Source: a virus (Duplodnaviria > Heunggongvirae > Uroviricota > Caudoviricetes). Taken from it: 64,000 nt of DNA. The stretch is from positions 37,544 to 101,543 of IMG/VR virus record IMGVR_UViG_3300048904_000041. One strand, written 5' to 3'. Positions 7,669 through 37,675 of the stretch are shown here, piece by piece; the first letter of the stretch is position 1, and every line of letters begins with the position of its first letter. The notes under the pieces are model-generated. The model was not told where the DNA came from. It did no database searches and was given only the letters and a program-made list of their open reading frames with translations. Made by a program: the position numbers and the translations under genes.

Positions 7669-8077
7669 CTTCTTTCTCCACGAATTTGTAAACGTTGTAA
7701 CGAACAGTAGTCATACCACCTTCACGACTAATGCTGTTTTGACTACCGAGATACATACTAGCCGACCAACCATTTGGTGCATCTTGCTCAGCATGGATCT
7801 TACCGATTTCCTTACGGATGACATCTTTGTCATAGCTATCGCATTTGATCGTTTGTACACGTGGTTCCGTCACCTTGACTTTACCGACGTTTTGAAGACC
7901 GCGAACTTCAATAGGTACTTCAGTCGTGTACAAACCAGTAATACACTCACCGAACTGCTGAGCTGTAAGCTTGATTTCTGCAAAATGAATGTTGCTATCA
8001 CGGTCTTCGATCTTGATATAGACATTGCCGTCAGACGAACGAGCAATGCAGATGTTACCGTTGATTACCTGAGTCAT
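7646..8077 (-). CDS. hypothetical protein
   Basis: 143-aa ORF. Confidence 0.5.
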   Translation of the reverse strand: MTQVINGNICIARSSDGNVYIKIEDRDSNIHFAEIKLTAQQFGECITGLYTTEVPIEVRGLQNVGKVKVTEPRVQTIKCDSYDKDVIRKEIGKIHAEQDAPNGWSASMYLGSQNSISREGGMTTVRYNVYKFVEKEDATVQPE

Positions 8078-30571: not shown

Positions 30572-30871
30572 TTATTTGTTGCTCAGACAGATTTTTGACA
30601 CATGTTCCTTGAAGCTCTGCATGGCATGTCGTTTGTTGGTTGTCAGTGCTCGCTCATAAGCCATGTCAATGATAGCCAAGCTTTCCTGAGAACTCACAAC
30701 TGACTGGATGGTCTTCTTATCACCACCGTTTTGACGGAATCGCATGGTGTCGTAGGCAATGTCAGCCTGTACAGCACAGTATTCCTGTTTGAAATTGACA
30801 TGTACAGTGTTTTCTGAAGCATGAACAGAAAGAGCCAGAAGGCCAAGGGTTGCCGCTAACAGTAATTTCAT
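30572..30871 (-). CDS. secreted/periplasmic small protein with signal peptide
   Basis: MKLLLAATLGLLALSVHA|SEN; promoter TTGACA-17-TACAAT at 30898-30926 and AGGAG RBS. Confidence 0.55.
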   Translation of the reverse strand: MKLLLAATLGLLALSVHASENTVHVNFKQEYCAVQADIAYDTMRFRQNGGDKKTIQSVVSSQESLAIIDMAYERALTTNKRHAMQSFKEHVSKICLSNK

Positions 30872-30947
30872 TTCGTTCTCCTAGTGATTGAGCGCCCATT
30901 GTACATCTCAGATTTAGATATGTCAAGCTTTTTCGTAGACAAAAGAA

Positions 30948-30969
30948 AACCCCGCACGATGGCGGGGCT
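30948..30969 (-). terminator. rho-independent terminator (CCCCGC-ACGATG-GCGGGG)
   Basis: hairpin + T-run on minus strand. Confidence 0.55.
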
Positions 30970-31136
30970 TCTGATGTTACTGAGCGCCTTTTGCGAAGAG
31001 TGGTTTACCCAACGCTGCTGCACGCGATTTCGGCATCTGTTCTTTGGTTGCAGTGTGACCTGCCGCTTGACGAATACCGTTACCTACGGTGGTTGCTTGC
31101 TTTCTCGTAGTGAACTTTTGCTTTACCAGCCATGTC

Positions 31137-31502
31137 TTACTCCTTATCTTTGATTTCTTTGATTTGTTGACGAACTTCACCTAATCTAATTTGAGCATTT
31201 TTGTGAGCTTCTTCAATCTTAGTGCGAGCTTCTTCCATTTTCGCATCCCAAACTTCGACATCTACAGGTTTACGCAATCTTGATTCGCGTAGTTCTTTTA
31301 CAGCGTAGTCAAACACCACATCATTCTTACGCACTTCACCTTTCGGCATGTAGCTCGGTTGAACTTGGAAGTAAACCAACAGTGCTAGAACACCAATTAC
31401 ACCAATGATGATCTTACCAACTTTCGAAGGTACAAGATATCGGATAGTCAAACCGAATACAATCACGATCAGATAAGGCAGTGCATTGTACAGAAAAACC
31501 AT
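31137..31502 (-). CDS. small membrane protein (2 TM + charged coiled-coil tail), co-operonic partner of SPFH lipoprotein
   Basis: start at MVFLYNALPYLIVIVFGL (GGAGAT RBS); hydrophobic helices then KEIKDKE-rich tail. Confidence 0.5.
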   Translation of the reverse strand: MVFLYNALPYLIVIVFGLTIRYLVPSKVGKIIIGVIGVLALLVYFQVQPSYMPKGEVRKNDVVFDYAVKELRESRLRKPVDVEVWDAKMEEARTKIEEAHKNAQIRLGEVRQQIKEIKDKE

Positions 31503-31553
31503 TTGAATCTCCAGTGAGATGCCCCGCCGCATATAGTCAACGGGGCTTTTACA

Positions 31554-32444
31554 TTACTTGATGTTGAGCAACATACCCGGTGCGTTTGCACCCATCACAG
31601 TTTGAGGTACGGTACCGTTCCACTTCTCAGCTTTGATCTGTTCGATTTCCAGCTCACGCATACGCAGATATTGTGGAGTCAGCGATTCAGCTACAGCACG
31701 TTGTTCGATTGCCTTGGTCTCAGCTTTCTCTTTCTCAATCTGACGTTGCAGTTGTGCTTCTTTCAACTCACGCTGCTGACGCACAGTGGAGATTTTCATC
31801 TCAGCTTCTTCACGCTCAATCTGCTCACGACGCTCTGCTGCTTTCTCTTGTGCAGTTGTAATGATCGGTGGCAGGATTACGTTACTCACACCAGCATAAA
31901 TAACTTGGAATGGGGTGCGATCAGCCATAACCTTTTGCAGAATAGTAGTCAGGTCTTGGTTAACCTTGTCAATATTCGAAGCAATCTCGCCGATTGTCAA
32001 CTGAGTCAGGTAAGCACGAACCTCAGCTTCCAGAATCGTTTTGCCGTAGGTGTTGTACACTGAGCGGCTGGTAATCAGCGATTGTTGAGAGCTATCACCC
32101 GGAGTCTGTGGAAGCTGTGCAAACAACGAGTTTGCTTTCTTCGGATCGATACGCAGAGTTGCTTCAATGTTCAGGTCAATATTCAACTTGTCAGCCGGGA
32201 TGTAAATCTTCAGCGGCTCGCTGTAACGGTTGTCGGTGGTATCCAGAACAACCAACTTGTCACAGTAAGCGTTGCAGAAAGGCAGTCGGAACTTCGAAGT
32301 TGGGATCAGGGTTTCTTGATAACCGTCTTTGGTCATAAGCTTACCAACGTGACCCGGTGGAACTTCAACCTTCTCACCACAACCAACCATCAGTGCACCA
32401 GCCAGAGCGATTGCTGCGAATTTCATCATGTTACGAACTTTCAT
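31554..32444 (-). CDS. SPFH/band-7 (stomatin/prohibitin/HflK-like) domain lipoprotein
   Basis: lipobox LMVGC|G after signal peptide; E/K/Q-rich coiled-coil region characteristic of SPFH C-termini; AGGAGAG RBS. Confidence 0.55.
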   Translation of the reverse strand: MKVRNMMKFAAIALAGALMVGCGEKVEVPPGHVGKLMTKDGYQETLIPTSKFRLPFCNAYCDKLVVLDTTDNRYSEPLKIYIPADKLNIDLNIEATLRIDPKKANSLFAQLPQTPGDSSQQSLITSRSVYNTYGKTILEAEVRAYLTQLTIGEIASNIDKVNQDLTTILQKVMADRTPFQVIYAGVSNVILPPIITTAQEKAAERREQIEREEAEMKISTVRQQRELKEAQLQRQIEKEKAETKAIEQRAVAESLTPQYLRMRELEIEQIKAEKWNGTVPQTVMGANAPGMLLNIK

Positions 32445-32470
32445 TTATCTCTCCTAATGATTAAAGTGTC

Positions 32471-32553
32471 AAGTCAAGAGTGGGATTCGAACCCACACGC
32501 CGTTCTCAGGCTGCCCGTATTAGGAGCGTTGTCTACCAATTCCATCACCTTGT
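32471..32553 (-). tRNA. tRNA (class II, Leu-like D-loop GGAATTGGTAGAC; T-arm GTGGG-TTCGAAT-CCCAC); anticodon not resolved by eye
   Basis: acceptor GACAAGG/TCTTGAC (one A-A mismatch), long variable arm GCC-TGAGAAC-GGC, starts ~12 nt after promoter -10. Confidence 0.55.
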
Positions 32554-32565
32554 CTTGATATGTCG

Positions 32566-32594
32566 CATTATACATCAGTTTGTTTACCCTGTCA
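32566..32594 (-). promoter_or_regulatory. consensus sigma70 promoter TTGACA-17-TATAAT driving tRNA-SPFH operon
   Basis: minus strand TTGACAgggtaaacaaactgatgTATAAT with AT-rich UP tract. Confidence 0.6.
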
Positions 32595-32598
32595 ACAA

Positions 32599-32868
32599 TT
32601 ATTTTTCAAAAAGTCTGTCGAAGCTTGGGCCGATGTTGCGAGCGAACAACCATGCACCAACGAACAGTGTGATTGCAAGCAGTAGTTCTGGTCGAGTTAC
32701 AATGTAAACTAAACCTGTTGCCAATGATACGCCGATGTCAGCAAGTAGCAACCCAACTGCAAACAGAATAGTGAATCCTGCAAACAGTGTCAATACCTTA
32801 ATCAAATTTTCTTTCATTTCAGCTCTCCAGCTCTTCAATTTGACGCTCAAGTTGGTTGATTTTATCAA
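32599..32868 (-). CDS. small membrane protein
   Basis: 89 aa, two long hydrophobic segments. Confidence 0.45.
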   Translation of the reverse strand: MIKSTNLSVKLKSWRAEMKENLIKVLTLFAGFTILFAVGLLLADIGVSLATGLVYIVTRPELLLAITLFVGAWLFARNIGPSFDRLFEK

Positions 32869-33149: not shown

Positions 33150-33344
33150 TTAAATCCCCTTCATTGCAAATTCAATCGTTGCTGTTGTGAATACACCAAG
33201 CATACTAAACGACGTGTATGTGCCGATTGCAAACCAGATGATTCCAAGAATCTTGCCAGTGTAAATCTTGTAGACCAGCATTACCGCTGAGAACAAGAGG
33301 CACGACAGCATCAAGACAGACATTAAAACACCAAGTGAAACCAC
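33150..33344 (-). CDS. small membrane protein
   Basis: 64 aa hydrophobic. Confidence 0.4.
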   Translation of the reverse strand: MVSLGVLMSVLMLSCLLFSAVMLVYKIYTGKILGIIWFAIGTYTSFSMLGVFTTATIEFAMKGI

Positions 33345-33356
33345 TTGTCAATCCTC

Positions 33357-33530
33357 TACTAAAATATTGTAGATCGAAAGTGCAATTGCTATGCATACAC
33401 CTACAGGCCAGAACACACCCATCAGCAAAACAACCCACAGTTTTTCTTCGTTTGTATAAACCACATCACTGCGATTTAAACAAAGCATCATGATAGCAAT
33501 TCCTGCCAAAACATAAAGGAACATCAGTTA
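33357..33530 (-). CDS. small membrane protein (MFLYVLAGIAIMMLCLN...)
   Basis: ORF below track cutoff. Confidence 0.3.
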
Positions 33531-37470: not shown

Positions 37471-37675
37471 GATTGTTTTGTCAGCGTTGCTTGGTGTGTT
37501 GATGGGTATCGGTTTGATCGTTGTAACATTTGACACAGTTGAACCTGTAATCAGATCGACATCTAAATCTGTGGCTCAAGTTTTTGCAAAACCAGTTAAG
37601 AAACTTATTGACATGGAACCTAAACGTCAGTATCCTGTTGGTACTTTTGAACATGAGCATAAGAAGACGATATGA
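37460..37675 (+). CDS. small membrane protein
   Basis: MNFKIVLSALLGVLMGIGLIVV TM helix. Confidence 0.45.
   Translation: MNFKIVLSALLGVLMGIGLIVVTFDTVEPVIRSTSKSVAQVFAKPVKKLIDMEPKRQYPVGTFEHEHKKTI

Follow-up and report, generated by a model that had tools for sequence, protein, structure and literature searches.

We describe an operon on the minus strand of a 64,000-nucleotide (nt) stretch of a Caudoviricetes genome (IMG/VR record IMGVR_UViG_3300048904_000041, positions 37,544 to 101,543; hereafter the window), in which the gene for a 296-residue lipoprotein of the SPFH / Band 7 superfamily is followed by that for a 121-residue protein which, as judged from sequence and structural modelling, is a membrane protein of a new and well-defined family distinct from NfeD. 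The operon is real and well conserved in many phage lineages and in Comamonadaceae. Our analyses lean, by a modest degree, towards an early operon encoding a two-protein envelope module, in which a periplasm-facing SPFH lipoprotein would act as a scaffold together with a dedicated membrane partner.

SPFH cages, such as those of HflK/C, prohibitin, stomatin and flotillin, are now viewed as general devices for fencing off patches of membrane, and the question of their clients in bacteria is largely open. A compact module made of one lipoprotein and one client of 121 residues would constitute a tractable two-protein system for a periplasm-facing SPFH scaffold. The strong early promoter found in phages suggests that the module is useful for infection, and the definition of the partner family lends context to many phage and bacterial genes currently annotated as 'hypothetical'.

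The SPFH lipoprotein and its membrane partner

The original prediction, generated by a model from the DNA alone, had assigned the 296-residue product to the SPFH/band-7 proteins, and both sequence and predicted structure bore this out. The protein matched the Pfam model PF01145 (Band_7) over residues 27-215 with 49 bits, against a gathering cutoff of 23.6 (E=9.2e-13), as well as phrog_200, annotated 'lipoprotein', over residues 4-294 (166.9 bits, E=1.4e-48); NCBIfam returned no model for either this protein or its partner. An AlphaFold2 model, built with 38 homologues as input and with a mean predicted local distance difference test (pLDDT) score of 76.7, consists of a beta-rich N-terminal domain and an alpha/beta SPFH core, followed by two helices, the first of 62 residues (strands at 25-99 and 179-190, helices at 193-254 and 257-274). 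When this model was compared with the PDB using Foldseek, the top matches were all SPFH assemblies, including prohibitin (E=2.5e-12) and the HflK/C chain 7vhq_E (TM-scores 0.60/0.66), followed by erlin, stomatin, QmcA-YbbJ and flotillin; the HflK/C structures 9cz2 and 7wi3 were matched as well. The matches to prohibitin, HflK/C, stomatin, erlin and QmcA span the whole model. SPFH-fold proteins were also common in a viral structure library.

The lipobox, likewise anticipated in the original prediction, proved to be a fixed feature of the family. Residues G21-C22-G23 are invariant in the 38 homologues, where the lipobox reads [LMIT]xGC and is followed by G-E/Q-K/R, and a lipobox is also present in the more distant phage homologues inspected. 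The protein is thus predicted to be attached to the membrane by a lipid anchor at Cys22, not by a helix. Other residues invariant among the 38 homologues are C57, C61, W275, G277 and P280, and the two cysteines, a constant pair in this subfamily, likely form a periplasmic disulfide.

Homologues of the SPFH lipoprotein are abundant: 499 were retrieved at E<=1e-10, those among the top matches listed lying mostly on contigs of phage size (~90-112 kb), and 138 GenBank phage records carry one, several of them annotated as band 7, SPFH, stomatin-like or lipoprotein. An identical protein is encoded on the 102,477-bp metagenomic contig P0001 and on two Logan contigs (L008 and L009); its best protein relatives, at 56-61% identity, belong to the Pseudomonas phages vB_PpS_SYP, Boevelstad, Ep020 and vB_PseuGesM_254. 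No DNA near-identical to the operon region was found among GenBank phages, and a 24-kb DNA query against them had a single match, phiPMW, which aligned at 73% across a portion of the replication region. phiPMW is a Pseudomonas putida phage of 103 kb and 45% G+C, reportedly driven largely by sigma-70 promoters (PMC5587285). This DNA match and the SPFH protein relatives together place the window in the ~100-kb phiPMW / vB_PpS_SYP phage group, probably as part of a Pseudomonas phage.

For the partner, the original prediction of a membrane protein with two transmembrane helices was upheld; its frame ends at 31137 and starts at the ATG at 31502 (121 residues) rather than at 31532, since every homologue opens with M-x-x-L-x-N. 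The protein gave no significant Pfam match, no PHROG or PADLOC match and no meaningful NCBIfam match, and no relative was found in the PDB by fold, profile or sequence. Its members are so short and so diverged that pairwise comparison fails to link them (tblastn against phages retrieved one record only); a profile search was required, and a profile of five sequences recovered 138 representative clusters at E<=0.001, ranging from 70 to 168 residues, mostly about 100-120. In an alignment of 61 sequences, the uncharged start, with N6 invariant, precedes a pair of hydrophobic helices with a short basic loop between them, then the motif QPSY[LMI]PKG (Y51 invariant; P49, S50, P53, K54 and G55 nearly so), and further DR-x-x-KP and EERD motifs with a charged tail. 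The AlphaFold2 model of the partner (mean pLDDT 90.8) shows helices at 2-23, 27-47 and 82-120 and an extended linker. An identity as NfeD was ruled out by the lack of an NfeD Pfam match at E<=1, of an OB-fold in the model and of a PDB match.

The charges of the partner suggest its orientation. Its inter-helix loop carries on average 3.1 K/R against 0.15 D/E, its first six residues are uncharged and its tail is net neutral; following the positive-inside rule, the loop would be cytoplasmic and both termini periplasmic, so that the conserved linker and the C-terminal helix would share the periplasm with the SPFH domain.

The pairing was surveyed with profile hidden Markov models of both proteins against the translated open reading frames (ORFs) of 39 loci (L001-L039), all of which carry an SPFH gene with the exception of the phiPMW region (L004). 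A partner match was found immediately 3' of the SPFH gene and on the same strand in 34 of the 38 loci, including those of the Xanthomonas jumbo phage XacN1, the Alteromonas phage V22 and 16 Comamonadaceae chromosomes. In Boevelstad one additional gene separates the two, and in Aeromonas AhSzq-1 (T5-like) and a KVP40-like Vibrio phage the partner position is held by a similarly built two-helix protein below profile detection. The Comamonadaceae genomes (Comamonas, Acidovorax and Lampropedia; L024-L039) hold the pair at 48-54% identity. In the three of them whose neighbourhoods were checked, it is flanked by ordinary cellular genes, namely those for a GGDEF protein, a beta-ketoacyl synthase, an NmrA-like protein, a 2-hydroxyacid dehydrogenase and an MCP. 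In many of these chromosomal copies, the SPFH and partner ORFs overlap or directly adjoin each other. The occurrence of non-phage copies argues that the pair is self-contained and needs no other phage proteins.

Transcription unit and intercistronic hairpin

The features of the unit, from promoter to terminator, are as follows.

32567-32595, minus strand: sigma-70 promoter TTGACA-17-TATAAT, perfect consensus (12/12 positions), early-type.
32471-32555, minus strand: degenerate type-II element resembling a leucine transfer RNA (tRNA-Leu), nominal anticodon AAU; 85 nt in the 5' leader, beginning 12 nt past the promoter.
32449-32455, minus strand: ribosome-binding site AGGAGAG of the SPFH gene, by direct reading, 4 nt ahead of the ATG at 32444.
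31554-32444, minus strand: ORF of the 296-residue SPFH/Band-7 lipoprotein, with signal peptide, lipobox (Cys22), SPFH domain, long coiled-coil helix and C-terminal W-x-G-x-x-P.
31521-31546, minus strand: G+C-rich RNA hairpin in the SPFH/partner gap, without a T-run; conserved, covarying stem.
31137-31502, minus strand: ORF of the 121-residue partner with two transmembrane helices, with its own GGAG, a QPSYMPKG...RKP linker and a long charged C-terminal helix; unnamed family.
30977-31132, minus strand: small basic ORF, 50 residues if intact, broken in the window by a 4-nt GCAA tandem duplication.
30946-30971, minus strand: strong intrinsic terminator at the operon end, 10-bp stem with 6 G-C pairs, then a T-run.

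The promoter, the ribosome-binding site with its 296-residue frame, and the terminator had all been called in the original prediction and were recovered here. The promoter is no chance match, since 17 sites with at most one mismatch to the consensus occur in the window, compared with ~1.9 in shuffled sequences. Almost all of the 17 lie on the minus strand, clustered at 16.5-34.3 kb near the primase-helicase and polymerase genes. An equivalent promoter stands directly 5' of the SPFH gene in most of the relatives inspected, namely L001, L007, L010, L011, L013, L014, L015 and L022, duplicated as two tandem consensus promoters at 2860-3000 in L010 (SPFH gene 90% identical), and none is evident ahead of the gene in the more distant relative L003; the ribosome-binding site is kept as AGGAGA in relatives. 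The type of promoter suggests that the operon is expressed early and driven by the host RNA polymerase.

The hairpin between the two genes had escaped the original prediction. The intergenic stretch that contains it folds with -21.5 kcal/mol, and its consensus comprises nine pairs, five of them with compensatory changes among eight relatives. The loop motif TGACTATATGCGG has a single occurrence in the window and recurs at the same site in L007 and L010; a role as a repeated regulatory motif within the window was ruled out, the motif being unique to the SPFH/partner gap. A second small stem (ATCTC/GAGAT, 31507-31520, minus strand) overlaps the GGAG ribosome-binding site of the partner. The hairpin and this second stem could tune translation of the partner relative to that of the SPFH protein, and the hairpin may set the ratio between the two.

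The promoter and the covarying hairpin are kept across relatives 55-90% identical, which, combined with the many phage homologues on contigs mostly of phage size, indicates long-term retention under selection in phages. This argues against a passenger pair, recently captured from bacteria and having little or no phage-specific role, an explanation to which the cellular orthologues at 52-54% identity and the absence of the pair from the syntenic region of phiPMW would lend themselves, and which we judge very improbable.

Between the partner and the terminator lies a third small ORF, also overlooked in the original prediction. Its reading frame is unbroken in L008, which encodes the same SPFH protein as the window, and the GCAA duplication is common to the window and the independent assembly L009. 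Homologues of 43-48 residues are found 3' of the partner in L001, L010, L011 and L014, and a very basic ORF of 43-50 residues is often present at this place in the ~100-kb phage clade. The unit that follows the cassette has its own promoter, TTGACA-17-TACAAT at 30926, and encodes a 99-residue secreted protein (signal peptide, phrog_2315; 30572-30871, minus strand); a signal-peptide protein of similar size, highly divergent, occupies the same position in L001, L010, L011, L013 and L014. Just 5' of the SPFH promoter are three small hydrophobic ORFs of 89, 64 and 58 residues (32599-32868, 33150-33344 and 33348-33524, minus strand), and the SPFH operon therefore lies within a cluster of envelope-targeted early genes.

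The tRNA-like leader element

The leader element had been called a tRNA in the original prediction, which the dedicated programs did not sustain. ARAGORN at default settings found no tRNA in the whole window, the Rfam tRNA model (RF00005) scored the element at 18.9 bits against a gathering score of 29, and its minimum-energy fold is not a cloverleaf, with a stability that does not exceed that of shuffled sequence (z ~0). Only with a lowered threshold did ARAGORN return an 85-nt type-II cloverleaf with a long variable arm, labelled 'tRNA-Ile(aat)'. The T-arm (GTGGG-TTCGAAT-CCCAC) and the D-loop (GGAATTGGTAGA) follow the canonical pattern, with U8 and U33 at their expected positions; the acceptor stem includes a G.U pair besides an A.A mismatch, two pairs make up the D-stem, the anticodon stem has a C.A mismatch, the anticodon is AAU, the discriminator is U, and CCA is not encoded. 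To our knowledge, bacteria do not ordinarily decode with an AAU anticodon carried by a Leu-type body with a long variable arm. In database comparison the element comes closest to tRNA-Leu genes of phages, with which it shares about 75% identity.

Upstream of the SPFH gene the element is absent in every other phage of the clade that was fetched, so that the synteny of tRNA and SPFH genes raised by the original prediction was not seen in them. In L022 (SPFH 90% identical, same upstream gene), it is replaced by a hairpin with an 8-nt loop, TCAAGA-CGACAAAC-TCTTGA, whose 3' arm TCTTGA equals the 3' acceptor strand of the window element; the 5' arm of the hairpin overlaps the beginning of the 5' acceptor strand of that element. 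L010 carries a remnant 5-bp version of this hairpin (TCAAG-22 nt-CTTGA) between its two promoters, and the more distant relatives have a plain leader of 20-30 nt.

A homologous element was found in L056 (Ga0247826_10000014, 7684-7840), a contig from the clade to which the window belongs: in translated comparison, the two are 74-75% identical in the polymerase and primase regions. There the element is placed between a consensus promoter and the ribosome-binding site of an unrelated ORF of 92 residues. It shares the D-arm and anticodon stem of the window copy, both identical; its acceptor stem is different yet perfectly paired, its discriminator is A, and it passes default ARAGORN as 'tRNA-Phe(aaa)', with an Rfam score of 29.9 bits, just above threshold. 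A third copy, with a 52-nt insert, is present in L057. An exact 21-mer of the element had no match in IMG/VR, and an 18-mer scan of metagenomes returned 18 loci, mostly chance matches within ORFs, the relevant ones being L056, L057, L046 and a true tRNA-Leu, L042. The annotated tRNA-Ile and tRNA-Phe of phiPMW were considered as instances of the same odd elements and discarded, as they showed no blastn similarity.

Linkage of tRNA genes to the module was also considered in Comamonadaceae, where a tRNA gene lies within about 1.5 kb of it in 4 of the 16 loci; with ~2 expected by chance, on a rough estimate, this is not clearly above chance, and the linkage was rejected. XacN1 (L018:810-1722), in which four annotated tRNA genes (Ser, Lys, Lys and Tyr) lie ~250 nt 5' of the Band 7 gene, is the only other phage case of such proximity seen and was treated as coincidence. 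This 385-kb jumbo phage presumably carries many tRNA genes.

A working tRNA within a promoter-tRNA-mRNA co-transcript, from which cleavage by RNase P would free both a decoder and the SPFH mRNA, would account for the canonical T-arm and D-loop with U8 and U33, and for the homologue in L056 that satisfies ARAGORN and Rfam and also sits between a promoter and an ORF. We nevertheless consider it improbable in view of the low Rfam score of the window copy and the lack of a default ARAGORN call, the mismatches in its acceptor and anticodon stems, the discriminator U, the missing CCA, the non-standard pairing of AAU with a Leu-type body as far as we know, a fold no more stable than shuffles, and the lack of the element in the close relatives L022 and L010. 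We instead take the element for a degraded gene of tRNA-Leu type that is specific to this lineage, situated in the 5' leader and outside the conserved module. In our reading, this phage group would hold odd Leu-type tRNA genes in early leaders, the window copy being a decayed or marginal member, and the copies in the window, L056 and L057 may form a small family of Leu-type tRNA-like elements that have A34 anticodons and are linked to promoters.

Proposed envelope role and comparison with known systems

In the envelope module that we propose, the 296-residue protein would be exported and lipid-anchored via Cys22, with its SPFH domain and long coiled coil directed toward the periplasm, and by analogy with other SPFH proteins it would most likely assemble, on the periplasmic face of a membrane, into a ring or cage. 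The partner would span the inner membrane as a helical hairpin, with the basic loop cytoplasmic and the QPSYxPKG linker and C-terminal helix periplasmic, and may act as a dedicated client or anchor of the SPFH assembly, in the place held by NfeD or FtsH in cells. In phages, a strong early promoter would drive the pair, whose probable purpose is to organise or protect the envelope of the infected host.

Several observations weigh against this proposal. The link between the SPFH protein and its partner is drawn from gene adjacency, and the topology of the partner from the positive-inside rule. Nor is the partner universal, since the most distant SPFH homologues, those of PAK_P3 and RisingSun, have no membrane protein downstream. 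The syntenic early region of phiPMW, the named phage closest in DNA, contains no ORF of SPFH size, so that the module is dispensable for this phage type. At the sequence level, the best match of the lipoprotein to a solved SPFH protein, the stomatin of P. horikoshii, is weak (E=0.005), and its residues +2 to +4 (G-E/Q-K/R) give no confident sorting between inner and outer membrane. The data show the anatomy of the genes, the SPFH fold, the lipobox, the architecture of the partner, the conserved synteny and the early-type promoter; topology, ring assembly, physical interaction and biological role are inferred, and the biological role is the weakest step of the proposed explanation.

The early-type promoter, the envelope location and the position of the cassette amid several small membrane or secreted early ORFs would also suit superinfection exclusion or receptor masking, in which an early lipoprotein and an inner-membrane protein block the DNA entry or adsorption of competitors. 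Comparable exclusion is provided by Llp of T5 and Imm/Sp of T4, and lipoprotein-based exclusion is established for other phages. The pair is, however, also present in the 16 Comamonadaceae chromosomes, among housekeeping genes rather than prophages, and it also occurs in phages that differ widely in host and in tail type, contrary to what would be expected of a receptor-specific blocker. Nor did PADLOC support membership in an anti-phage defence system, returning nothing for the partner and for the SPFH protein only a negligible match to MzaE (E=0.022 over 25 residues). Exclusion therefore appears unlikely as the function of the pair. Since non-phage cellular orthologues exist, we favour a general envelope-organising or protective role, ranked above receptor-specific exclusion and above an FtsH-directed function.

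Extended to its full scope, the envelope module would be an unrecognised periplasmic SPFH cage with a dedicated QPSYxPKG client that is neither an NfeD protein nor a protease, switched on within minutes of infection by many unrelated phages and fencing off part of the inner membrane, possibly in order to resist membrane-targeting abortive infection, to seal the DNA-entry lesion or to exclude rival phages; the tRNA-shaped leader may in addition belong to a small family of promoter-linked type-II A34 elements moving between early leaders. As a whole, this combined picture is speculative and we put it forward only tentatively.

Among known systems, SPFH-NfeD operons (QmcA-YbbJ and YqiK-YqiJ of E. 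coli; PH1511-PH1510 of P. horikoshii) share with the phage unit an SPFH gene after which the same strand encodes a small membrane protein of several helices, and an SPFH domain joined to a long coiled coil. The resemblance drawn by the original prediction thus stands for the layout, with the partner in 34 of the 38 loci, and fails for the partner itself, which lacks an NfeD OB-fold or protease domain, is all-helical in its model save for the extended linker, has no Pfam, PHROG or PDB relative, and bears QPSYxPKG, DRxxKP and EERD motifs of its own. Furthermore, the phage SPFH protein would be lipid-anchored and periplasm-facing, whereas those of the cellular operons are anchored by a helix or hairpin.

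HflK/HflC, which regulate FtsH, are alike in having a periplasm-facing SPFH domain with a coiled-coil wall, and HflK/C chains gave the best PDB TM-scores. The fold and the proposed orientation, which resemble those of 7vhq, 9cz2 and 7wi3, would suit a mimic of HflK/C that alters the turnover of host or phage proteins by binding or caging the FtsH of the host, or another membrane protease. The phage unit, however, has a single SPFH gene and no K/C heteropair (the adjacent ORFs have no Band_7 match), a lipobox in place of the N-terminal helix, a conserved non-protease partner of its own and no protease in the operon. It was accordingly not placed with HflK/HflC, to neither of which it has detectable sequence similarity, and these data contain no tie to FtsH or to lambda CII, both of which the original prediction had invoked alongside an HflK/C pair. 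Such mimicry seems to us quite unlikely.

Two-component spanins (Rz/Rz1) also combine a lipoprotein with an inner-membrane protein bearing a helical periplasmic tail. Their o-spanin is short and proline-rich, and their i-spanin, encoded with it in a lysis cassette, has a single helix, whereas here the lipoprotein is a 296-residue SPFH protein, the partner has two helices, the promoter is of early type beside replication genes, and chromosomal copies exist outside phages, so that the pair was rejected as a spanin. The leader, for its part, resembles phage tRNA regions (of T4/T5 type, and the tRNA-Leu genes of large phages) in its succession of promoter, short leader, tRNA-shaped element and ORF, and differs from phage tRNA genes in its sub-threshold score, mismatched stems and non-standard anticodon.

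The closest counterparts are the phage proteins of phrog_200 (vB_PpS_SYP gp107, the 'stomatin-like' CDS-42 of V22, PAK_P3 gp041 and the ORFs of the T4-like 44RR, Aeh1 and RB43), which at 30-61% identity belong to the same family, all have a lipobox and do not differ materially from the SPFH protein of the window. SPFH/Band 7 ORFs of three T4-like phages were listed in 2006 (PMC1524935), the 'stomatin-like' V22 homologue was counted in 2020 among the class II auxiliary metabolic genes, under quality control of membrane proteins (PMC7289586), and in Pasteurella multocida an HflK/C-like SPFH protein from a prophage island was investigated as a virulence factor (PMC9872710). In the phage records and papers examined, the partner bears no functional name and appears as 'hypothetical protein', 'predicted ORF' or 'TMhelix containing protein'. 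The statement of the original prediction that no such phage system is described therefore needs dividing: phrog_200, the 138 GenBank records and the 2006 and 2020 papers already document the SPFH genes, and the searchable literature yielded no functional test of a phage SPFH protein in infection and no account of the partner family or of the conserved pairing. As phage SPFH genes were already annotated, the finding is no surprise in kind; what is new here is the partner family and its conserved pairing with the SPFH lipoprotein.

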